Assembly: GCA_027491115.1 (NCBI GenBank)
Contig: JAIXWV010000020.1
Location: forward strand, 229,975 to 293,974
DNA from: Pseudomonadota bacterium
GTDB lineage: Bacteria > Bdellovibrionota > UBA1018 > CAIMNF01
DNA length: 64,000 bases
Direction: 5' to 3'
Every line of letters begins with the position of its first letter. The first letter of the stretch is position 1. Shown piece by piece: positions 34,032 to 57,146 of this stretch. The position numbers and the translations under genes are program-made. The notes beneath the pieces were generated by a model. That model saw only the letters and a program-made list of their open reading frames with translations. It ran no database searches and was not told where the DNA came from.

Positions 34032-37000
34032 GTGCTCACCAGGGTTCACCTGAGTACTATTTTCTTCCTCACTCTCCTCACCCTGACAGGGTGTGGAAGG
34101 ATGCGTTCACCCGATTGGGGACAAGCTGGCAATCGTACAGGCGACACGGGGTTAGCACCTTCCAAGATCCGGACAGTCAAAACCTCCTCAAGCCATTCTT
34201 GCGCAATCAACGATTCTGGCGCCTTGTATTGCTGGGGAAATAACAACTCTGGGCAAGTCATGCCCCCTCCTGAATGGACACCCCAAACGGTAAGGAGGCC
34301 CTCCTCTGCCAGCCTCTCCACCATCGACACCGCCCCCAGCTCCCCCACACTTTATGACCCCATACATAGGAAAACCATCACCTCTCTGTCTGCGCAGAGT
34401 AGCTCCCTCGTAAGCGTGAAACACTTTTGCATGATTGTCGGCGACAACATCCCACCGAAAGGAAACGTGGTGTGCCTGGGCAAGGCAGATCCTATGCAGC
34501 TCTTGGGCGGTGCAGGTAGCGATGGCGTGCTGCCGGCGCCCAACGGAATGAGATTCACACGCGTCAAAACCGGCAAACAGGTCACATGCGCTTTGGGCGC
34601 GGATGGCGCGTTGTACTGCGCAGGTGTTTCACCCGCCTTGCCCGGTGGCGTGAGCAGTACCTTGACCCGCTTGGAGTGGGGACTCGCTTCATCGGTAGTC
34701 ATCGATTTTGCGGTCGGGGATGGTCACATCTGCGCAATTCACCAAAACGAAAAACTCTACTGCTGGGGAGACAACTCTGAAGGCCAGGTCGGTCCACAAG
34801 GAGGATCAATTGATCAGCTCCCAGATGGAACCCTGGATCCCTTTACTCAGGTGATCGAATCACAAACGATCGATAACTTCACGCAGGTCTTCGCCTCCGA
34901 CACCCAGACCTGCGCTATTGCGAAAAACGAACAAATTTACTGCTGGGGACGTAACACAGGCCCGCCCCGTCGGGTCTCGAACCTGGGCTGGAAAGTCGTA
35001 TCGGCCTCGCTCGGCCCCTTCCACAATTGTCTGATTTACAATGAGGGAGTGACGGTAAGTGGCAGAGTCGCTTGCGCCGGAGCCAACATGAACGGACAGC
35101 TCGGGCTTGGTTATTCCTCTGTGATGTTTCCAGTGCCTGCGACAGGCGATCTCAGCCCCGTGCTCCGAACCCCCGGGGTCCAACTGGCGAATGTGGTCCA
35201 AGTTTCAGTGGGACTTCAAAATACTTGTGCTGTTGATGGCACCAACAAGGTTTGGTGTTGGGGCGAGAACTCGTCAGCCTACGAAATCGACCAACCCACC
35301 CCAGCTGTTTATCCCTTTGCATTACTCACCCGAACATCGTCGAATGCGGAACAAGTGGTCACCGGCTCCGGCTTCACCTGCGTGGTTCGGACTGATGGCT
35401 CCCTGACCTGCAATGGGATCAATGTGTTCCAGCAAATTCAAGAGCCAATGAGTGTCACCACCGAATTCCTGAGTTCGACCACCGTTCTCGGGCCGCATCT
35501 TTTCGGCTCAAGTATCCCCATGCCGCTCGGATTCCAGCTCCAGCCGATCATTCACCCCCTGTCATCGAATAAAGCCAGTACCTGTGCTTCCGTTAGCGAG
35601 GAGGGCGGACGCCTCTACTGTTGGGGATCGATGTTGGATCTCAACCTCCCCGATCAGCCGACGAGCAAAATCTACCAAAGTCCGGTTCCGATTCCTGGAC
35701 TCGAAGATGGCGTCACTTCAGTTTCGCTGGGAAAAGAACATGCTTGTGCCATCAGGGCGGGAGCACTCTACTGCTGGGGGAACAATCAGTCCGGTCAAGT
35801 GAATGGAAAGTGGGTGAGTGACCCTGGTGCAGCAGGATCCGTGATCGTATTGCCTCAGTTGATTTTCAGGTCCGGGGTTTCTGCCGTGGCAGCAGGAGGC
35901 GATCACACCTGCGCCGTGGTCGTAGACCAAGTCATGTGCTGGGGCGCCAATCAAGTGGGCCAAGTCGGAGCCGGGCGGGTTTCGAAAAATATTCCCTACC
36001 CGGTCGCGGTTCTCCAAGGTCCGATCGTGGCGCTCACTGCGGGTGCGAACCATACCTGCGCGATTCAGGGTCCCTCTCCTGGAACGATTTTTTGCTGGGG
36101 AGACGGATCAAAGGGACAGCTCGGATTAGGGACCACCGCCTTCGATCGTCCGACCTTGATTTCCTTGAACCCTGCTCTGGGAGTTTACGACCCAGTCGAA
36201 ATCGTTGCGGGCGACTATCACACCTGCATGAAAGCTCTGAATGGATCCCTCGAGCCTCACTTGCTTTGTACGGGCCGAAACGACCACGGACAAATTGGGC
36301 TTCCCATCGGAGTCCCACAACAAGAAAGCTTTGTCCGTCCGAACGGATTGGTTTTGGCGGATACGACTGCCATCGCGGCATCCGGGGAACTGACCTGCCT
36401 GGTGGCCGATACCCCGGGTATCATGCACGATTTCCAATGCATGGGGAATAACACCTCCGGGCAACGCGCCATCGGGTACCCGACGCAACCTGGGGCTCCA
36501 GGAACTGAAAGTATTCGCATGGTCGATCCCTCAGCCATCCTTCACCTCGCCCCAGGAACAAATCACCTTTGCTTTAGTGAAGGAAATGTACTTTGTGTGG
36601 GTTCGAACGCAAATGGTCAGCTCGGAAACGGCTCTCAGTTTCAGCTCGCATTCTACAGTCCGCAGCTGGTGCTGGACGGTGGAGTCACAGATGTGACCCT
36701 GGGATCCGAGCATACCTGCGCACTGAAAGAGGGGAACCTCCATTGCTGGGGCAGCAACCAGGCCCACCAACTGCCGGTAATTGACCCCGCCACTCCTTAT
36801 CTGGTCTCAGCCACCACACCCCTGGTGAGTGGAGTGAGCCATGTGGCTACAAAAGGTGACACGGTTTGCATGGTCCGAAACCGCGAAGTCCGGTGTTGGG
36901 GACAAAATGCGAACGGAACTCTCGGGCTCGATAGCAACACCACTCAATTGACATACGTCGACTCGATCGCTTCACCCCCTATTTTCAGCCAAGACATCTC

Positions 37001-37583
37001 GCAGTTGGTGGTGGGTCAAACGAATACGTGCGCGGTCCTGATGGATGGGGCCCTTTGGTGCTGGGGCCAAAATGATAAGGAGCAAATTGCTCCAACTGGA
37101 GAAGTGGGAGGCCCCGGCTGGGTGATTCAGCCATTTCATGTGAACACGAACAGCACATCCGTGGCAAAGGTCATCGCAGAAGAAACGCTGTGCTGGGTGG
37201 GCATGGATGGATCGCTCGGGTGCAGAGGAAATGTGCCATTCGCGACTGAAGTGAACAACCTGAGTGCACAAATCAGCCCGGTTGCAGATCTCATATCTGG
37301 AGCCGATGCACTGTGTGCTCTCACAAAATCAGGGGAGATCTACTGCGGAGGAAACAACTCGGATCAGATCCTTGACCCCAATGCACCCCAAACTACAAAC
37401 CTACCCTTCAGGAAAGTCCGGAATGGATTCGAAGTGACCTCGTTTTCGATATCGAATTTCCATGGCTGTGGAGTCGAGGCCGGAATACTGAAATGCTGGG
37501 GAGACAACAAGGAGGGCGCCCTGGGGATCGGGGAAGTCGACCTGGGGATTCATCTGACTCCGATCGAGGTGGTATTCCCATGA
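34032..37583 (+). CDS. giant lipoprotein composed of about 20 RCC1/ATS1-like beta-propeller repeats
   Basis: GTG start with RBS AAAGGGAG; lipobox LTLTGC; a recurring about 50-aa unit H-x-C-A-[IV]-x(4-8)-[LVI]-[YWH]-C-W-G-x-N-x-x-G-Q-[LV]-G, for example HSCAINDSGALYCWGNNNSGQ, DHTCAVVVDQVMCWGANQVGQVG, EHTCALKEGNLHCWGSNQAHQL. Confidence 0.75.
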   Translation: MLTRVHLSTIFFLTLLTLTGCGRMRSPDWGQAGNRTGDTGLAPSKIRTVKTSSSHSCAINDSGALYCWGNNNSGQVMPPPEWTPQTVRRPSSASLSTIDTAPSSPTLYDPIHRKTITSLSAQSSSLVSVKHFCMIVGDNIPPKGNVVCLGKADPMQLLGGAGSDGVLPAPNGMRFTRVKTGKQVTCALGADGALYCAGVSPALPGGVSSTLTRLEWGLASSVVIDFAVGDGHICAIHQNEKLYCWGDNSEGQVGPQGGSIDQLPDGTLDPFTQVIESQTIDNFTQVFASDTQTCAIAKNEQIYCWGRNTGPPRRVSNLGWKVVSASLGPFHNCLIYNEGVTVSGRVACAGANMNGQLGLGYSSVMFPVPATGDLSPVLRTPGVQLANVVQVSVGLQNTCAVDGTNKVWCWGENSSAYEIDQPTPAVYPFALLTRTSSNAEQVVTGSGFTCVVRTDGSLTCNGINVFQQIQEPMSVTTEFLSSTTVLGPHLFGSSIPMPLGFQLQPIIHPLSSNKASTCASVSEEGGRLYCWGSMLDLNLPDQPTSKIYQSPVPIPGLEDGVTSVSLGKEHACAIRAGALYCWGNNQSGQVNGKWVSDPGAAGSVIVLPQLIFRSGVSAVAAGGDHTCAVVVDQVMCWGANQVGQVGAGRVSKNIPYPVAVLQGPIVALTAGANHTCAIQGPSPGTIFCWGDGSKGQLGLGTTAFDRPTLISLNPALGVYDPVEIVAGDYHTCMKALNGSLEPHLLCTGRNDHGQIGLPIGVPQQESFVRPNGLVLADTTAIAASGELTCLVADTPGIMHDFQCMGNNTSGQRAIGYPTQPGAPGTESIRMVDPSAILHLAPGTNHLCFSEGNVLCVGSNANGQLGNGSQFQLAFYSPQLVLDGGVTDVTLGSEHTCALKEGNLHCWGSNQAHQLPVIDPATPYLVSATTPLVSGVSHVATKGDTVCMVRNREVRCWGQNANGTLGLDSNTTQLTYVDSIASPPIFSQDISQLVVGQTNTCAVLMDGALWCWGQNDKEQIAPTGEVGGPGWVIQPFHVNTNSTSVAKVIAEETLCWVGMDGSLGCRGNVPFATEVNNLSAQISPVADLISGADALCALTKSGEIYCGGNNSDQILDPNAPQTTNLPFRKVRNGFEVTSFSISNFHGCGVEAGILKCWGDNKEGALGIGEVDLGIHLTPIEVVFP

Positions 37584-48739: not shown

Positions 48740-51709
48740 TCACACGCGAGTCTCCCGATCCGACTCGAAATCGTTTCCTGCATTCAACATTTCAAAATAC
48801 TTTCCTCGGGTCGACATCAGGAAATCATGATCTCCTTCCTCGATTACGTGCCCCCCCTCCACAACCAGAATACGATCGACATTCCTCACAGTGGAGAGAC
48901 GATGGGCGATGATAATCGCCGTACTCCCATGAAACACTTCCTTGAGGTTCCTCGCCACAATCCCCTCTGAGTCTGCGTCGAGAGAGGAGGTCGCCTCATC
49001 AAGAATGATCACGCGGTTTCTACGGTAGAGTGCCCGAGCGAGGATCAACCTCTGCTTCTGGCCTCCTGAGAGGCCCAATCCCCCCTCCCCCAGTCGATAT
49101 TCGTACTGGTTCGGAAGCTCATGGATGAACTCATCGCAGTTCGCTAGGCCAGCAGCCCACCGGATCCGGTCCATGTCGGGGGTATCGTCTCCATAAGCGA
49201 TATTGTCGCTAATCGTACCCGAGAACACCTTGGAGTCCTGGTTCACATATGCGACTTGACTACGAACTGTAGACAGATTGAGGGAGTTGATGTTGACCCC
49301 GTCGAGTTCAATTGCACCCTTTTGAACCCTATAGAATCCTGCGATGAGGTTCGCGATGGTCGACTTCCCTGATCCGCTACTGCCCACGATCGCTACGACC
49401 TCACCTGGCCGTACCCTGAAGTCCATGTCACGGAGAACTGGGGGGCCCTCCGGGCGGTACTGAAACGAGACACACTTGAAACAGATTTCGCCGCGTAATG
49501 AAATACGGATTCCCGACCCGACATCGTCCTGAGACTGTTCAGACGGTGACAACAGGATCTGTCCTACTCTTTCGAGTGAAAGTTTCACATTCTCCCAGTC
49601 CAATACCATCGAGCTCAAGCTTGAAACTGGACTAGAAACCATCTTCAAATAAAGGTTAATCGAGATCAGCTCGCCCGGCGTGAGCCGCCCATCGAGCACT
49701 CCGCGGGCAGCCAGATACAATCCCACAACCGATCCCGTACCAGAAATCAACGAAGTCACTAAACCGAAGTGATTCATCCTCATTTGAAGCCGATAACCTC
49801 GAGCTCCGAGGGAAACGAGCAATCCCTCCCAACGATCGAGAATCTCGCGCGTTACGGAATTAGCTTTGATGGTCTGGATCGAAGACACCATTTCCGCAAG
49901 GAAGCTATCTAGCTTTACCTCATCCCTGAATAACAGTTTCGATTCCTCGACATATCCTTTTTTAAAAATCAGATTGCCGAACAAAAGACTTACAAAAATG
50001 GCTGCTGGTATAGCGAGGTACTCTGCTCCAAAGGTAGAGAGCATCACGCTCCCCGCCACGACCATGAGGACATCCACTAACAGGCTAATGGCGCCTGTCG
50101 AAATGAAGCGTCGAATTCCGCTCATTTCAGACATCCGAGCAACCACCTCCCCGATTCGGTCTCCAGTAAAAAGATTGGGATGAGCCGCAAGGTACCGATG
50201 ATAAAAAACAGAACTCAGATGGAAGTTTGACTGATTAGTGAATTCATTGATCACAAACTTCTGAGCTGTCCTCGAGACAATTGAAAAAAGTCCTAGAGCA
50301 AAAATCAATCCGACCACTCCCCAGACGAGTCCGGGTTCCTTCAGGGGCAGAATGTCGTCAAACAGGTACTGCATCACTTTTGGAAGAATGGTCTCAATCC
50401 CGACTACAAGTCCGAGTAGCATCAGAAAGGTCAGAAAAAACGACCGATAAGGACTCAGCAACTCCCAGATGATTCTCATGACTCGAAATTGCTTGCGCTC
50501 CGTCGATTCACCCTCAGGAACCCCCTCAGCCCGGGATCTAACCTCGATCAGGGTCCTGTTCCAGATCTTTCCGATCTCATCGAGAGAAGCCCTTCGGAGT
50601 CCCGACATTCCATCATAAAGAATCCACTCACTCGCTTTACATTCGAGCACCACCACAACTCGCTTGTTCACTAGAATACAAAATGGACAGCGATTCTGGG
50701 GCCCCGCTCTTTCTGCTTTCCAAATTTTTACATATAAGCCCTGTGACTCAAGGACCTCAGCCAAAACTAAGGGGGTCCTTGCACGCTTGAGCGACAACCC
50801 CTTGGCTAGTGCTTCGGAATCAACAACCACTCCCGCCAGAGATCCATAAACACGGAGCGCATCGACGGTAGCCTCAGTGAGCGTCTTGGCCTGACGGGAA
50901 CGCTGATCGATCTGCGACCACCGCTCATCTTCCATCGACTCGCCAACCATCTCGATCACTTCCGATCCCACCACGGGGACCGCCCTAATTGCACGCTTCA
51001 GGCAGGAGTTTGAATCAAGAACCATCATCAATTCAGCGAAATCATCCTTAGGAAGCGGCATGGAATTGATCACTGCCGCGGTAAGGGCTTCGCAAGAAAA
51101 CCGATCTAGGACGAACCAGGAGCCCGACCCGAGAAACTGGGGAGTAGCATACTCAGAATCGGAGGCGTCCGGATGAAGAAGAACCTCTCCTTCATCTACC
51201 CAATAAAGAGCCCCCTGATCGTTTCTACTTAGCACTTCACCTTTTTGAAGCGACTGCCCCTTACCGTTTGTTTCGCCGAAAAAACGCACCAAACGACCCG
51301 CAGGAATTCCGCTGGAGCGGAACAAGGCATCGAGATTCTCTAAAGCGGAACAACTGAATACGGTCTTGAGATACCAACTCCCCTCATTGTTTTTTCGGAA
51401 AGACGTTTCAATCAGGTCGACTGAAACACTTAGGAACCATACAGGGAAAGGGGCTATGTAATCTTGTGCATGCGTTTGATTGAGGATCCACTCCCGAAGA
51501 CCATAGGCCCATGGAGAACTCAGCCCGGATACGGAAAAAAGTATATGCTTAACCGATTCTCCCTTTCGAAAGATCAGCTCTCCCTCTTTGTAGGAAACTA
51601 TCCTGCTCGAGATCAAGCAATCTGTTTCAAGACTGGGAAACAACTCCAGCAAACGCTTGAACTGGGAGGAACGATGGATCACCTGGGAAACATTCATGCC
51701 CGGAGTCAT
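48740..51709 (-). CDS. NHLM-type ABC exporter with N-terminal cNMP-binding-like domains and a degenerate C39-like domain
   Basis: 989 aa. N-terminal cNMP-binding-like segments (e.g. YKEGELIFRKGESVKHILFSVSGL), a C39-like region lacking the catalytic Cys context, a 6-TM ABC exporter domain, Walker A GSSGSGKST, signature LSGGQKQR, Walker B ILDEATS. Confidence 0.75.
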   Translation of the reverse strand: MTPGMNVSQVIHRSSQFKRLLELFPSLETDCLISSRIVSYKEGELIFRKGESVKHILFSVSGLSSPWAYGLREWILNQTHAQDYIAPFPVWFLSVSVDLIETSFRKNNEGSWYLKTVFSCSALENLDALFRSSGIPAGRLVRFFGETNGKGQSLQKGEVLSRNDQGALYWVDEGEVLLHPDASDSEYATPQFLGSGSWFVLDRFSCEALTAAVINSMPLPKDDFAELMMVLDSNSCLKRAIRAVPVVGSEVIEMVGESMEDERWSQIDQRSRQAKTLTEATVDALRVYGSLAGVVVDSEALAKGLSLKRARTPLVLAEVLESQGLYVKIWKAERAGPQNRCPFCILVNKRVVVVLECKASEWILYDGMSGLRRASLDEIGKIWNRTLIEVRSRAEGVPEGESTERKQFRVMRIIWELLSPYRSFFLTFLMLLGLVVGIETILPKVMQYLFDDILPLKEPGLVWGVVGLIFALGLFSIVSRTAQKFVINEFTNQSNFHLSSVFYHRYLAAHPNLFTGDRIGEVVARMSEMSGIRRFISTGAISLLVDVLMVVAGSVMLSTFGAEYLAIPAAIFVSLLFGNLIFKKGYVEESKLLFRDEVKLDSFLAEMVSSIQTIKANSVTREILDRWEGLLVSLGARGYRLQMRMNHFGLVTSLISGTGSVVGLYLAARGVLDGRLTPGELISINLYLKMVSSPVSSLSSMVLDWENVKLSLERVGQILLSPSEQSQDDVGSGIRISLRGEICFKCVSFQYRPEGPPVLRDMDFRVRPGEVVAIVGSSGSGKSTIANLIAGFYRVQKGAIELDGVNINSLNLSTVRSQVAYVNQDSKVFSGTISDNIAYGDDTPDMDRIRWAAGLANCDEFIHELPNQYEYRLGEGGLGLSGGQKQRLILARALYRRNRVIILDEATSSLDADSEGIVARNLKEVFHGSTAIIIAHRLSTVRNVDRILVVEGGHVIEEGDHDFLMSTRGKYFEMLNAGNDFESDRETRV

Positions 51710-52281
51710 GATCGATCAGCCGCGACTCCGATGTTGAACCAATCTCGCAAGATCTTACCCAAGGGGGTCCAATAACCCTGCACCACCATCGCGTTAACGT
51801 GCATCCCTGGCCGTAGGGCTGAGTCTCCAGACAAAATTCTGGCATCATTCGAAAATGGTCCGGACACCGCAGCAGAATAAGTTGGGGGTGAACCCATCGG
51901 CTCATTCCGGATCGACTCAATCACTCCCTCAAAAGGTGGAATCAACTTTTCCGAGACCCCATCCACTCTCAAAATGACTCGCATTCCTTTTTTTATCTGG
52001 AGTGTTTCAGAGACACCCAATTGGACCAAGGCGATTAGACGGGAGTCCTTGCCATCGATCTGTGCGAGAACCCCCCTTGAACTCACCGTATGCGGTGCCT
52101 CGAAAAAAGAAGCGTACCCCACCGTCAATCCAAGCAACACCAGCAGGAGTCGCACCGAATAACTAACCGCGGCACTTGGTCTTGAAGCGACAAACTCAGC
52201 CATCCCCCAAGATACCTTCGACGGGCTGTACGTCACCGCTTCTTCGGAGGAGTCGGAACGCTCGGCGGGTTCAATGTGCAT
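51706..52281 (-). CDS. short HlyD-family periplasmic adaptor lacking the coiled-coil hairpin
   Basis: 191 aa with a single N-terminal TM and a beta-rich C-terminal membrane-fusion-protein domain (GMRVILRV...GMHVNAMV); overlaps the ABC gene stop by 4 nt. Confidence 0.55.
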   Translation of the reverse strand: MHIEPAERSDSSEEAVTYSPSKVSWGMAEFVASRPSAAVSYSVRLLLVLLGLTVGYASFFEAPHTVSSRGVLAQIDGKDSRLIALVQLGVSETLQIKKGMRVILRVDGVSEKLIPPFEGVIESIRNEPMGSPPTYSAAVSGPFSNDARILSGDSALRPGMHVNAMVVQGYWTPLGKILRDWFNIGVAADRS

Positions 52282-52367
52282 ACCTTAATTTCAACATATT
52301 TCTCCCTCTTTTGCACAGCTCTTGCTAAAATAATTGTGTCCTGAACCCTGACAGAAATGGATCCTTC

Positions 52368-54899
52368 TTGAGTAATGAACACACAAAGGCGTTACTGACT
52401 CTTGCAAGCGATCTCACATTCTTCAACTTCAACGAAGTGGAGATTCATGAAACTCTAGAACTGTTTCGACAGATGAGTGAGAATCTTCAGCCGCGAACCG
52501 GCGAACGAGCCGTGATCATATCGCTCGAATCGGGCGCTTACCGGATGACGCTCGGCCCCCCCCGACCCGAACCTGGGTTCGACGGGGAGCTGATTTTCCT
52601 TACCGAAGAAACTTGGTCTTCCCGAGTAGGCAAGGAGAAGACTGCACCCTTCCTGGATTTCCTCGAGCATGAGATTCCCAGCGAAGCTCACCTCAGCGGT
52701 GAACAAACCACAACTGACCCAGACGAGGAGATTCGGCTTTTCCACAAAAACTCAAATGCACCAGAAGGAAAACCCGTATTTATCCCTCAACACGACGAGA
52801 TGGACTGCGGAGCCGCCTGTCTTTCGATGATCGCGCATTATTACGGGAAAAAGATATCTGTCCCTGACTATCGCTCAAGAGTCCATGTTACCCGCGAAGG
52901 GGCCTCCATGCTCGCCCTCAAACGCGCGGCCGAACAAACCGGTTTCGACGCAATCGGAATCTACTCTGGATTAAACTCGAATCTACTTCAGGTTCGCACT
53001 CCGTTCATCGCCCTCATGGACTATCATTTTGTCGTGGTCTATACGGTGACGGAGAAAGAATTCCTAGTTGGGGATCCCGCAGTTGGAATTAGATCAATCC
53101 CACTGGAAGAAATAAGAAAGTCGTGGTCGAAGTTCCTGCTCCTATTGAAGCCAAACTCCACTTTCAAAGACCAGAAAGAGAGCTCACCTACATTTAGAAA
53201 GTATCGACGTGTTTTTCAAGGAGAAGGAGGCCGCCTTTTCGATATCGCGACCGCATCGATCTTGAGCTTATCTGTAGGGGTGATCACACCACTCTTCATG
53301 CAAACCGTTTTCGATCGTGTATTCAGCGAAAAAAGCCAGGATGGACTCACGGCCTTGGTCATTGCCTCAGTGGCCGCCACAGTCGCATCGACTTTCTTGG
53401 GCTGGGTGAGCACCTACACATTCTCCCATTTATCCATTCGTCTAGATTCCAAGTTCTCCGCTCTGTTCATGCGACACACCCTATCTCTACCCTCTGGATT
53501 TTTCGCTGTGAGGCGGGTCGGAGACATTACCACACGTGTTCAAGAGTTGGGCGTGTTGAGGAGTTTTTTTACTGGGGATCTCCTCGCGTTGCTGATGTCA
53601 CTCCTGTCTGCGGTCATGTATTCAGTTCTTGCGGCGCTTTACGACTGGAGAATCCCTCTTCTGGTATTCTGTCTTCTTTTCTTTCAGGTACTTTTCGTTC
53701 TTAAAATTTCAAAGAAAATCTCTGAAATTTACCAGCAGTCCTTTAAGTCTTCGACGAAGAGTCAAAGCCTTCTTTATGAACAGATCCATTCGATCGAGAC
53801 GCTTAAAATCCTCAATCAGACAACTCCGGCCCGCTGGCGATGGGAAGAAACTCTTCTAGACTCCCTCAGGCTTCAAAGAAAACTCGGTCTATATACTGCA
53901 ATTTCAGCAGGCAGCTCGGAATTCTTTAGAGAAGCCTCCCTCAATATTTGTATCTTTCTATGCCTTTATCTTTACCTACTGAACGATCTGACTCTCGGTC
54001 AGATTGTGGCGGTCACTGCCCTGATCGGGAACATCACACCGGCGATTGTTCATCTGGTAGAGTCACTTACTACCATCAGCCAAATCAAGGTCTCTCTTGC
54101 AAGGGTGGATGACGTGATCACTTCGTCTCCAGAGAAGACCGAGGGTCGCATGGATTTCGATCCTTACGGAAAGATCGAGTTCAGAGGAGTATCATTCCAG
54201 TACGGAAATGAGTTATCGCCATATGCCCTCCGGAATGTGGATCTAACCATCAACTCCGGGCAGTCGGTGGCTTTTGTGGGAACAAGCGGTTCTGGCAAAA
54301 CAACTCTTGCCCAGATGATCGGGCTACTCCATCGCCCCACACAAGGCAGTATCCTGATTGATGGTGTCGACATCACCACTTTGGACCTGGAGAGACTCAG
54401 ACAGCATGTCGGAATGGTCCTTCAGGAAAACAACCTCTTCAGCGCGAGCGTACTAGACAACATCACCCTAGGGGACCCAAACCCATCCCGACAAAAGGCG
54501 ATCGAGGCAGCCAAGATCGCTCAGATCGACGAACTGATTCAGACTCTGCCTGGGACATATGATTATCTGATCGACCCAGTTCACTCCGGCCTTTCGATGG
54601 GCCAAAAGCAAAGAATTGGAATTGCGCGAGCAGCCTATAGGAATCAAGCCATCCTTATCCTAGATGAGGCAACCTCTGCGCTTGATGGAATCACAGAGAA
54701 AAAAATCATTGAAGCTCTGATGCGGCACCGGAAAGGCAAGACAACAGTGGTAATCGCTCACCGGCTTTCTACTGTTTCTGGAGTGGACCAGATCTGTGTT
54801 TTTGAAAAGGGCACTCTGGCTGAAAAGGGAACCCTGAAGACTCTCACTCGAAGAAGGGGGAGATTCAGCGAACTATTCGCCAATCAACTTCAATTCTGA
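52368..54899 (+). CDS. peptidase-C39-containing ABC transporter (PCAT, double-glycine leader processing exporter)
   Basis: C39 catalytic motif QHDEMDCGAACLSMIAHYYG, 6-TM exporter domain, Walker A GTSGSGKTT, signature LSMGQKQR, Walker B ILDEATS; 843 aa. Confidence 0.85.
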   Translation: MSNEHTKALLTLASDLTFFNFNEVEIHETLELFRQMSENLQPRTGERAVIISLESGAYRMTLGPPRPEPGFDGELIFLTEETWSSRVGKEKTAPFLDFLEHEIPSEAHLSGEQTTTDPDEEIRLFHKNSNAPEGKPVFIPQHDEMDCGAACLSMIAHYYGKKISVPDYRSRVHVTREGASMLALKRAAEQTGFDAIGIYSGLNSNLLQVRTPFIALMDYHFVVVYTVTEKEFLVGDPAVGIRSIPLEEIRKSWSKFLLLLKPNSTFKDQKESSPTFRKYRRVFQGEGGRLFDIATASILSLSVGVITPLFMQTVFDRVFSEKSQDGLTALVIASVAATVASTFLGWVSTYTFSHLSIRLDSKFSALFMRHTLSLPSGFFAVRRVGDITTRVQELGVLRSFFTGDLLALLMSLLSAVMYSVLAALYDWRIPLLVFCLLFFQVLFVLKISKKISEIYQQSFKSSTKSQSLLYEQIHSIETLKILNQTTPARWRWEETLLDSLRLQRKLGLYTAISAGSSEFFREASLNICIFLCLYLYLLNDLTLGQIVAVTALIGNITPAIVHLVESLTTISQIKVSLARVDDVITSSPEKTEGRMDFDPYGKIEFRGVSFQYGNELSPYALRNVDLTINSGQSVAFVGTSGSGKTTLAQMIGLLHRPTQGSILIDGVDITTLDLERLRQHVGMVLQENNLFSASVLDNITLGDPNPSRQKAIEAAKIAQIDELIQTLPGTYDYLIDPVHSGLSMGQKQRIGIARAAYRNQAILILDEATSALDGITEKKIIEALMRHRKGKTTVVIAHRLSTVSGVDQICVFEKGTLAEKGTLKTLTRRRGRFSELFANQLQF

Positions 54900-55669: not shown

Positions 55670-56758
55670 TCAAAACCGTACATACTGATCTCCCCTAACC
55701 AATAACCCCAACCCCATCATCGACTCGATTTCACGAGGATTGAAAAAAGCAATCTCCTCACGGTAGTATTCCGGCAAGAGGGCCTCTTTCCCGGCCAGAA
55801 CCATATCTCGGGCCTCTGGAATCACCCCCTCGGGCCGAATTCCACTCTCCGACTCCTCGTACTGGTTGATCCGATGGAGGTTGAAACCCGAGACTCGACG
55901 GCGGAACATCTCGAACCCACACATCGGGAAATGGAGAATAAGTGCGCTCATACTGTCATCAATCACCACTGAAGCATTGGTAAGATCGGGGTGGTAGTGA
56001 TGCACCGTAGAGGGAGTTTCGATATCTATGAAGTGCCTCGGCCTGAAAACACTCTTTCCATGAGCATACCCGACGAAAGGAAATCTCCGAAAGGCGCGAT
56101 ATCTCATGTACAACCATTGCTTCTCACTCAATATGAAGCGGGTCTTTTTAAAGAGTGCCACCTCTCGAAAGGCGTCTCGGTACTCAATCTGCTGGGGAAC
56201 TGCCTCAACATTAGGAACAAATACCTCTGAGACACGATCATCGAATCGACTCAGATACTCGCTCACTCCGCCACAGGTTCTATCGACCCCAAATAGCTCG
56301 TCTGAATCGAGGTGACAAAGCCAGTCTATTCCCTCCTGAGCAGCGAGTCGTGTGGCATACCCAGTATTGAGCTGCTGCCGCGTCACCACTCTTCTGGAGT
56401 AGGTCTCAGCATGATTCTGATAAAAAATAGTTTTTTGGAGCACCTGCAAGAGGCGGTCGTCATGCTGAATAATCTGCACAAAAGAAGAAAATTCTGACGC
56501 CTGTAGAAGTTCCAAAAATGCGGCGTCATAAGCTGGATCATCCAGAAAAAGATACACCTTTTCAAACCCAACTGAACGGTGGTGACTTAGAAAACTAAAA
56601 AATCCGGAATCAAGCCCTTTGGCTGTAGTCACCAGTGCGGACTTCAACCCATCCCCCAAAAAAGAAAAAGGGCGTCCTTCTTCAACAAAGAAGGACGCCC
56701 CGAAATCATTACTTACCGCCGGCTTTGACCGCACCAGGCTTAGCCCCGGCAGGAGCAA
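55670..56758 (-). CDS. GT92-like glycosyltransferase (second copy)
   Basis: SVGFEKVYLFLDDP and LDSDELFG motifs, a paralog of the preceding gene. The first-listed start is TTG; the true start is uncertain and may lie downstream. Confidence 0.45.
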   Translation of the reverse strand: MLLPGLSLVRSKPAVSNDFGASFFVEEGRPFSFLGDGLKSALVTTAKGLDSGFFSFLSHHRSVGFEKVYLFLDDPAYDAAFLELLQASEFSSFVQIIQHDDRLLQVLQKTIFYQNHAETYSRRVVTRQQLNTGYATRLAAQEGIDWLCHLDSDELFGVDRTCGGVSEYLSRFDDRVSEVFVPNVEAVPQQIEYRDAFREVALFKKTRFILSEKQWLYMRYRAFRRFPFVGYAHGKSVFRPRHFIDIETPSTVHHYHPDLTNASVVIDDSMSALILHFPMCGFEMFRRRVSGFNLHRINQYEESESGIRPEGVIPEARDMVLAGKEALLPEYYREEIAFFNPREIESMMGLGLLVRGDQYVRF

Positions 56759-57146
56759 CGCCTTGCTTCACCGCGGTGGCGGCACTTGCCTTCTGGAATG
56801 GGAACTTGGATGCTGCTCTGAAGCCAGCGCCACCCACCACCAGGTTCGCAAACCGGGCGGATGCGGTGAGCTCGTCGGTGGAGATACCACCTCCGGCGAG
56901 AACCGCCATCTGGGAATCACTCAGCTTCTTCATTCCCCATTCGGAGTCGAAATGAATCAGGTCATCGAACTCTTCAAAGGTTGAGCAAACTCTGGCGACT
57001 TTACCGAGTGACAGTGCGTCTGCTGCGTCAACGGTAGGTCCGAGTAGTTTTGCTTTGGCTTTGATAGAGGTTTCGTCATCCCTTCTAAACGACTCATAAA
57101 CAGACTTCAGAATCACCTTTGGAATACGCCCCTTGGACATCGACAT
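56709..57146 (-). CDS. candidate RiPP precursor: NHLP/Nif11-like leader ending in a double-glycine motif plus a Gly/Ala/Lys-rich core
   Basis: Strong RBS (GGTAAGGAGAAAGC-ATG) and an AT-rich upstream region. Residues 1 to about 86 form the leader, with ...MKKLSDSQMAVLAGG(G) at 72-87 matching the LSxxELxxVxGG consensus. KAKLLGPTVDAADALSLG resembles the NHLP/Nif11 helical block. The 58-59-aa core is ISTDELTASARFANLVVGGAGFRAASKFPFQKASAATAVKQGVAPAGAKPGAVKAGGK. Flanked by a C39-PCAT cassette. Confidence 0.55.
   Translation of the reverse strand: MSMSKGRIPKVILKSVYESFRRDDETSIKAKAKLLGPTVDAADALSLGKVARVCSTFEEFDDLIHFDSEWGMKKLSDSQMAVLAGGGISTDELTASARFANLVVGGAGFRAASKFPFQKASAATAVKQGVAPAGAKPGAVKAGGK

Follow-up and report, generated by a model that had tools for sequence, protein, structure and literature searches.

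A C39 peptidase transporter, a peptidase-dead partner and a minimal HlyD-family adaptor as a probable peptide export cassette in a Bdellovibrionota bacterium

We analysed a 64,000-nucleotide stretch of DNA (hereafter the window; contig JAIXWV010000020.1, positions 229,975 to 293,974, assembly GCA_027491115.1) from a bacterium that GTDB places in the Bdellovibrionota. The window contains three adjacent genes for transport proteins (Table 1): an 843-aa peptidase-containing ATP-binding cassette (ABC) transporter (PCAT), referred to here as ABC-B, a 989-aa ABC exporter referred to as ABC-A, and a 191-aa adaptor of the HlyD/membrane fusion protein (MFP) family. The listing of open reading frames (ORFs) placed all three where an earlier, sequence-only reading of this DNA had located them, with the PCAT gene divergent from the other two. 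The adaptor and ABC-A genes share 4 nt (ATGA, in which the adaptor stop and the ABC-A start coincide). No sigma-70 consensus site was found in the 86-bp spacer that separates this operon from the PCAT gene, in a scan that is uninformative for this phylum. Most likely, the three genes trim and export a small peptide of the surrounding sugar-adding gene cluster, the presumed cargo being a 145-aa precursor encoded nearby. We regard the cassette as a variant, not previously described, of the known long-type CAP_ED/C39 ABC exporters and not as a member of the nitrile-hydratase-leader (NHLM) family, to which the sequence-only reading had assigned it.

Table 1. Features of the export cassette in the window and of related loci (L010 to L015; for these, coordinates refer to the locus named). 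TMD, transmembrane domain; NBD, nucleotide-binding domain; cNMP, cyclic nucleotide; GG, double-glycine.
Feature	Position	Strand	Basis or remark
ABC-A, 989-aa ABC exporter partner	48740-51709	-	ORF listing; order CAP-like (twice), inactive C39-like, TMD, NBD
C39-like domain without catalytic Cys or His (ABC-A residues ~275-395)	50525-50887	-	
Second CAP/cNMP-like beta-roll, phosphate-binding-cassette segment deleted (ABC-A residues ~150-235)	51005-51262	-	
First CAP/cNMP-like beta-roll, eroded, 17-residue deletion relative to homologues (ABC-A residues ~30-125)	51335-51622	-	
Minimal HlyD/MFP-family adaptor, 191 aa	51706-52281	-	ORF listing, phmmer, AlphaFold, Foldseek
Divergent intergenic spacer, 86 bp, between adaptor/ABC-A operon and PCAT gene	52282-52367		
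ABC-B, 843-aa PCAT	52368-54899	+	ORF listing
ABC-B N-terminal extension, ~135 aa	52368-52772	+	Conserved in locus L004, 42% identity
Active-type C39 peptidase domain of ABC-B (Gln141, Cys147, His220, Asp236)	52779-53159	+	
145-aa precursor, presumed cargo	56709-57146	-	
Adaptor, 197 aa	L010:9454-10047		
Adaptor, 207 aa	L011:11845-12468		
Adaptor, 250 aa	L012:9772-10524		
Lysine-rich GG-leader ORF	L010:18941-19309	-	
Lysine-rich GG-leader ORF	L011:17455-17613	-	
Lysine-rich GG-leader ORF	L012:6794-7072	-	
Lysine-rich GG-leader ORF	L013:3016-3231	-	
Lysine-rich GG-leader ORF	L015:3308-3499	+	

Judged from its sequence, ABC-B, which is read from a TTG start codon, is a genuine PCAT of the AMS family, combining an N-terminal C39 peptidase, a six-helix TMD and a C-terminal NBD. 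Pfam returned Peptidase_C39 with 110.6 bits (residues 138-264), ABC_membrane with 117.3 bits and ABC_tran with 110.1 bits, and residues 134-836 aligned to the whole of PCAT1 (PDB 4ry2) and of ComA (8hf4). In a residue-level alignment the QHDEMDCGAAC motif, the His of YHFVVVY and the Asp of GDP coincided with the PCAT1 positions, and Q141, C147, H220 and D236 were invariant across five related proteins. With Gln, Cys, His and Asp intact, the peptidase is predicted to be catalytically competent, as had been proposed. It is also the sole C39 domain in the genome, which is 98.7% complete. On the TIGR01193 subfamily model ABC-B remained below the cut-off (366.8 vs 523.85 bits). An orthologue of 837 aa, encoded on a 14.5-kb Logan contig (locus L004), shares 64% identity with it in an alignment that starts at residue 11.

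The N-terminal extension of ABC-B had no Pfam match. MAFFT aligned it to the proximal half of the ~290-aa extension carried by B-type relatives; hhalign gave a weak match between the two (28.8% probability, E 6e-4) and nothing between the extension and the ABC-A N-terminus. The ~290-aa extension of the relatives is itself homologous to the A-type N-terminus (98.7%). The shorter extension in the window is probably a remnant of this CAP-like extension of related long-type PCATs, the label CAP-like being a guess. In the NBD (54228-54887), the signature reads LSMGQ instead of LSGGQ, both in the window and in the L004 orthologue (L004:4440-6953), with the other NBD motifs canonical; ABC-A and the B-type proteins of the relatives have the consensus or nearly so ([LV]SGG[QE]). 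Judging by the motif, the substitution could leave one ATP site of an A/B heterodimer asymmetric. A degenerate ATPase site was considered as a signature of a heterodimer and rejected, as only the LSMGQ of the PCAT differs, which is too weak to use.

ABC-A was matched by ABC_membrane (73.8 bits) and ABC_tran (108.5 bits), all its NBD motifs are canonical, and it is 51% identical to its L004 orthologue (980 aa) over 975 residues. Its N-terminus had been read as tandem cNMP-binding-like domains followed by a C39-like domain without Cys. On the N-terminal 403 residues, cNMP_binding (PF00027) scored 25.9 bits, below the gathering cut-off of 27.5, and the match split in two (14.2 bits at residues 38-63, 16.5 bits at 153-228); in the L004 orthologue there was no match. 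The ABC-A homologues of loci L010, L011 and L012 exceed the cut-off (41.2, 40.2 and 29.2 bits) and contain a partial C39-like domain (41.8, 37.9 and 23.3 bits). Because these homologues of the same N-terminus pass, the description as tandem cNMP-like plus C39-like domains holds, for the cNMP-like part by transitive homology and not by the score of the protein itself. The ligand-binding signature of the CAP-like domains is lost. In a five-way alignment, six residues of domain 2, which read GGEALV or GGQAIV in the relatives, are missing from the window and L004 proteins, as are 17 residues of domain 1; R-[ST]-A occurs in neither domain, and neither has the G-E ... R-[ST]-A pattern of a phosphate-binding cassette in recognisable form.

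The C39-like domain of ABC-A was weakly matched by Peptidase_C39 (E 0.004, profile positions 47-132) and was aligned by hhalign with the C39 domain of ABC-B at 82.7% probability. The catalytic His is replaced by Arg, and in the five-way alignment no Cys occupies the nucleophile position; the domain is indeed Cys-less, and its His is absent as well. A word-based search with residues 1-410 of ABC-A in 5.8 billion clusters returned only ABC-A itself, a profile search of the N-terminus against PDB sequences nothing meaningful, and a contig scan of genomes with ABC-A one unrelated Bacteroidales NBD match. A search of 40 relatives, 16 of them congeners, gave no match to the N-terminal 403 residues. 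A single-sequence AlphaFold prediction of the N-terminus reached a pLDDT of 36.5.

The third protein, the 191-aa adaptor, had no Pfam or NCBIfam match even at E<=10, and none to HlyD, HlyD_3 or Biotin_lipoyl_2. Searching 1.84 billion representatives with phmmer yielded 14 hits, namely the protein itself, one of 190 aa (40% identity), one of 197 aa, one of 296 aa and ten of 394-425 aa, the last matching the adaptor in two stretches. E-values against the HlyD_3/TIGR01843-type proteins of ~420 aa ranged from 8e-8 to 3e-4. All nine relatives that were scanned (197-425 aa) belong to the HlyD family (HlyD_3, HlyD_D23, Biotin_lipoyl_2); they scored 61-157 bits on TIGR01843, below its cut-off, and at most about 49 bits on TIGR03794. 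A word-based homologue search with the 191-aa protein found only itself, and a metagenome scan with two short adaptors found nothing.

The alignments show that the adaptor keeps the N-terminal cytoplasmic segment, the transmembrane (TM) helix and the C-terminal barrel, while 229-235 residues of the full-length relatives, comprising the lipoyl halves and the coiled-coil, fall in its gaps. The AlphaFold model built on a 16-sequence alignment (pLDDT 80.8) consists of a TM helix (residues 37-59), a six-stranded beta-barrel with a short helix (62-171) and a further helix (173-182), with no hairpin. When this model was compared with the PDB by Foldseek, all ten hits at E<=0.001 were periplasmic adaptors, among them MacA (E 7.9e-5), ZneB, Spr0693, MexA and the HlyD of the HlyB/D complex; the hairpin-less BesA stood further down the list. 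Of the features that define the HlyD/MFP family, the protein thus has the N-terminal TM anchor and the MFP beta-barrel but not the lipoyl domain and the coiled-coil alpha-hairpin. By its phmmer matches, its alignment gaps and the match of the predicted fold to MFP beta-barrels, it is a HlyD/MFP-family adaptor reduced to the membrane-near part. The claim that a HlyD-family adaptor belongs to the set is therefore borne out by direct phmmer matches to HlyD-family proteins and by the AlphaFold fold. The further claim of a complete tripartite system is not supported, as the hairpin and lipoyl domains are missing and the contig holds no TolC-family gene.

Residues 18-36 of the adaptor (52174-52230) contain a cytoplasmic motif, Y-x-P-S-K-V-S-W-x-x-x-E-F, that is largely conserved in full-length and most short members (Trp25 invariant, Val23 and Pro35 at least 90%) and could be a contact to the N-terminal domains of the ABC proteins. 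The adaptors form a size series of 296 aa (P0010), 250 aa (L012), 207 aa (L011), 197 aa (L010) and 191 aa (window), along which the alignment indicates loss of the hairpin, then of the lipoyl halves and then of the first barrel strands; stepwise reduction appears likelier than a single deletion. The possibility of a fragmented gene or an error of assembly was considered and rejected, given that the L004 orthologue is of nearly equal length (190 aa, about 39-40% identity) and has the same 4-nt coupling, and that there are three more short forms.

Locus L004 carries the full cluster in synteny with the window, in the order PIG-L, GT_PLOD, 143-aa precursor, two glycosyltransferase-like genes, PCAT, short adaptor, ABC-A, MBOAT and ALGX-like, and its genes, none of which contains a frameshift, are thus maintained. 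The precursor of the window is 80% identical to the one at the syntenic position there. A profile of the ABC-A N-terminus, searched in 400 genomes of the same phylum, found three homologues. The three-gene set (short HlyD_3-only adaptor, ABC with cNMP and C39-like domains, C39 ABC) is also present, in a looser form, in at least three other genomes of the phylum (G154, G326 and G305), with adaptors of 197, 207 and 250 aa. The A-B pairing is kept in five loci; 4-nt overlaps chain adaptor, A and B in L010 and L012, and the PCAT lies on the strand opposite to adaptor and ABC-A in the window, L004 and L011. With a broader profile, ORFs of ~1000 aa with this architecture were detected in about 19 of the 400 sampled genomes. 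The version of the cassette found in the window was not seen by these searches in other genomes of the genus, and loci with a single long-type ABC and an adaptor also exist (L013, L015, L016).

In a maximum-likelihood tree of the TMD and NBD cores, A-type and B-type proteins were split by a branch with 99/98 support, which argues that the A-B pairing is old. The ABC-A of L011 was left out of this tree since its NBD is truncated: this A-type ABC of genome G326 (L011:9064-11838, minus strand) stops after the Q-loop, and its signature, Walker B and H-loop are either absent or in another frame; it is probably a frameshifted or decaying copy.

The 145-aa precursor has a double-glycine leader motif at residues 75-86 (L-S-D-S-Q-M-A-V-L-A-G-G), found by the motif scan in the window and in L004 alike. 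The motif fits the classical leader positions (-12 Leu, -11 Ser, -8 Gln, -7 Met, -4 Leu, -2 and -1 Gly), which predicts cleavage after Gly86. Small GG-leader ORFs (K-K-L-[ST]-x-x-x-L-x-x-[LI]-x-G-G) lie within a few kb of each three-gene set, and in two other genomes also beside single long-type ABCs, with or without an adaptor on the contig. The sequence-only reading had taken the 145-aa ORF for an exported, leader-cleaved peptide; the only C39 domain in the genome, the synteny with L004 and the GG-leader ORFs beside related cassettes make it the likely cleaved cargo. The cores of the GG-leader ORFs are mutually unrelated (one Cys/Pro-rich, one Gly-rich, one very short). Runs of proteins of 400-510 aa without a Pfam match, encoded between related cassettes and these ORFs (L010:16134-18934, minus strand; L012:1635-5728, plus strand), may be unrecognised tailoring enzymes.

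We consider it probable that the set is an inner-membrane machine which cuts and exports a double-glycine-leader peptide, with ABC-A as partner, a minimal adaptor and delivery to the periplasm. Beyond the gene structure, domains, catalytic residues, homology, adaptor fold model and conservation described above, we infer its substrate, its heterodimeric state and its periplasmic end point. ABC-B would recognise the L-S-x-x-Q-M-x-x-L-x-G-G leader of the 145-aa precursor, its C39 Cys/His peptidase would cut after Gly86, and the ~59-residue core, probably glycosylated, would then be translocated by ABC-B. ABC-A would serve as a dedicated partner, most simply as the other half of an A/B heterodimer; conserved A-B pairing and gene coupling point to one such complex. 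Its dead C39-like and two CAP-like domains might offer the long leader a platform for docking or regulation and would neither cleave it nor sense a cyclic nucleotide. In exporters of the HlyB type, dead C39-like domains are best known as the substrate-docking module of the exporter itself (PMC10986499). The role of the 191-aa adaptor is probably to organise the ABC complex or lend it stability, and the product probably reaches the periplasm and not a direct TolC duct. Periplasmic release is the simplest end point, since the adaptor has lost the duct-contacting parts and no TolC-family or other outer-membrane efflux protein gene was found either in the contig of the window or next to the cassettes of the relatives. 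Neither was a full-length HlyD found beside the latter.

Several points weigh against this reading. The genome, which is diderm-like judged from its TolC-family genes, has seven such ORFs elsewhere, so that a bridge to the outer membrane is possible, and BesA, an adaptor without a hairpin, still works in a tripartite pump (PMC3807786). Both NBDs have canonical Walker A/B, Q-loop and H-loop; nothing therefore forces a heterodimer, and two homodimers are possible. The PCAT is divergent from adaptor and ABC-A in the window, so co-expression is not guaranteed. The substrate is assigned by adjacency only, and the adaptor model was built on 16 sequences.

The canonical NBDs would also suit two independent transporters, a PCAT homodimer exporting the peptide and an ABC-A homodimer that does another job together with the adaptor, such as protecting the producer by pumping the mature peptide off the membrane, or handling other cargo. 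This arrangement deserves to be kept in mind as a minority view. It would agree with the opposite strand of the PCAT in three loci and with the loci that have a single long-type ABC and an adaptor, but not with the A-B pairing in five loci, the translational coupling that links A and B at two of these, the age and co-inheritance of the A and B lineages, or the docking role for which dead C39-like domains are best known (PMC10986499). Gating of export by a cyclic nucleotide on the N-terminal domains of ABC-A, as implied by the sequence-only reading, would be suggested by the weak cNMP_binding similarity and by the relatives above the Pfam cut-off. The Gly-Glu segment of the cassette, however, is deleted in domain 2 of the window and L004, R-[ST]-A is absent from both domains, domain 1 carries the 17-residue deletion and the L004 orthologue lacks any cNMP match. 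Moreover, in HetC, the one cNMP-domain PCAT that has been studied, this domain showed no response to cAMP, its ligands being ppGpp, GTP and GDP (PMC10986499). With the ligand-binding signature missing and HetC binding ppGpp and not cAMP, cyclic-nucleotide gating is unsupported and in our view very improbable. A 'cNMP domain' annotation on such exporters thus does not imply cyclic-nucleotide control.

Three genes make up the NHLM set, namely those for a HlyD-like protein (TIGR03794), for a peptidase-bearing ABC (TIGR03796) and for an ABC that lacks a peptidase (TIGR03797; Haft et al., 2010, PMC2887384). This NHLM/NHLP cluster corresponds to bacteriocin cluster group V of cyanobacteria (Wang et al., 2011, PMC3140520), and its extra ABC in cyanobacteria has a CAP_ED N-terminus of the long type and no C39 (PMC3140520; PMC2887384). 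The same parts, a C39 ABC, an ABC with a CAP-like N-terminus and a HlyD-family protein, are present here, and the NHLM model TIGR03796 is the top NCBIfam model for ABC-B. Nevertheless, none of the three proteins reached the cut-off of TIGR03794, TIGR03796 or TIGR03797. ABC-B scored 470.7 vs 853.3 on TIGR03796 (55% of the cut-off; relatives 458-482 bits, likewise sub-threshold) and 425.9 vs 725.55 on the HlyB-type TIGR01846. ABC-A scored 351.8 vs 853.3 on TIGR03796 and 316.1 vs 709.4 on TIGR03797, less than on TIGR01846, its best NCBIfam model (416.6 vs 725.55), and it retains a C39-like domain, which the second NHLM ABC, defined by TIGR03797 and the lack of a peptidase domain, does not have. 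The adaptor had no hit to TIGR03794 (cut-off 156.2) even at E<=10, the genome has no member of that family (best match 19.7 bits, elsewhere), and the full-length adaptor relatives scored 114-157 bits on TIGR01843 compared with at most about 49 on TIGR03794. The 145-aa ORF matched no NCBIfam model at E<=0.001, including NHLP (TIGR03793) and the Nif11 type (TIGR03798), and at E<=10 only NF038167 (E 0.45) on the GG-leader stretch. A true NHLM/NHLP-type set serving an NHLP/Nif11-type precursor is therefore improbable. The set is a relative of the NHLM export set from another lineage, for which the NHLM architecture is a fair analogy: the domain logic of two ABCs and an adaptor stands, the family membership does not. 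We give hardly any weight to a classical HlyB/HlyD/TolC type I secretion system whose substrate would be a large protein bearing a C-terminal signal, and in which the C39-like domain would be as in RTX exporters and the peptide incidental. The best model of ABC-A, type_I_sec_HlyB, aligned from residue 284 through the C39-like domain, and the TolC-family genes in the genome would fit such a system. The score of that model is below its cut-off (416.6 vs 725.55), though, the adaptor lacks the hairpin needed to reach TolC, a canonical type I HlyD was not found in the genome, no RTX-type cargo is evident in the cluster, and the conserved neighbours include an active PCAT and a GG-leader precursor.

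The GC content falls from ~0.57 upstream to ~0.49 at ~38 kb and stays low up to the end of the window (38000-64000), and the neighbours of the cassette are MBOAT, AlgX-like, GMC-oxidoreductase and glycosyltransferase-like genes as well as the 145-aa ORF. An acquired island would fit the low GC and a version of the ABC-A N-terminus unseen in 16 genomes of the same genus. Just upstream of the low-GC block lies a lipoprotein-like ORF of 1183 aa made of RCC1-type repeats (34032-37583). The transporter set is the strongest genomic argument for the 145-aa ORF as a cleaved, exported peptide; on that reading the 25-kb low-GC island as a whole would be a glycopeptide pathway of a Bdellovibrionota-type bacterium. 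The adaptor series of ~420, 296, 250, 207 and 190 residues could separate the parts needed at the ABC transporter from those needed at the outer-membrane duct, and the conserved pairing of an active and an inactive C39 ABC is testable as a heterodimeric PCAT, of which there is none among the solved PCAT structures returned by the structure matches. It is a bolder and rather doubtful suggestion that the cassette represents a new class, a diderm exporter confined to the inner membrane, with an obligate ABC heterodimer of live and dead peptidase and a ~190-aa stub adaptor. Such an exporter would deliver a glycosylated peptide to the periplasm, there to be finished by the MBOAT/SGNH pair and the lipid-linked glycosylation module and brought to the surface in a separate step.

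The SunT-type PCATs of glycocin clusters remove a GG leader from a glycosylated peptide and have glycosyltransferases alongside, as here, but they belong to monoderms and comprise one PCAT, with neither an adaptor nor a second ABC. ABC-B resembles PCAT1 of C. thermocellum (4ry2), ComA (8hf4) and LahT150 (6mpz), with which it aligns over C39, TMD and NBD with identical catalytic residues; these are homodimers without a paralogous partner or an N-terminal extension and have LSGGQ in place of LSMGQ. The NHLM set shares with the cassette two ABC half-transporters and a HlyD-family protein beside a double-glycine-leader precursor, with an active C39 in one ABC and a CAP_ED-type N-terminus in the other. 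It differs in that the second ABC here, best matched by the HlyB-type model, retains a peptidase-dead C39-like domain, the adaptor measures 191 instead of ~420 aa and the PCAT has a 135-aa N-terminal extension. The C39-like domain of HlyB is Cys-less like that of ABC-A. The part of HlyD near the membrane that is resolved in the HlyB/D complex (PDB 7sgr) can be superposed with the adaptor model (161 columns, TM-score 0.47/0.53), but HlyD has ~480 aa, and the half with its long, TolC-recruiting hairpin is missing from the adaptor. BesA of Borrelia burgdorferi (PMC3807786; PDB 4kks/4kkt/4kku) also lacks the alpha-hairpin; it retains lipoyl, beta-barrel and membrane-proximal domains and serves a resistance-nodulation-division (RND) pump, whereas the adaptor of the window is a single TM-anchored beta-barrel. 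The long-type CAP_ED-C39 transporters of cyanobacteria, including HetC of Nostoc PCC 7120 (PMC3140520; PMC10986499), have the same order of cNMP/CAP-like, C39(-like), TMD and NBD in ~1000 aa and are likewise paired with a HlyD-family gene and GG-type peptides. HetC has its own catalytic Cys and His and binds ppGpp in vitro (PMC10986499), whereas in the cassette described here the long-type architecture is distributed over two paralogues, one active and one inactive, and the CAP-like domains have lost their ligand-binding signature.

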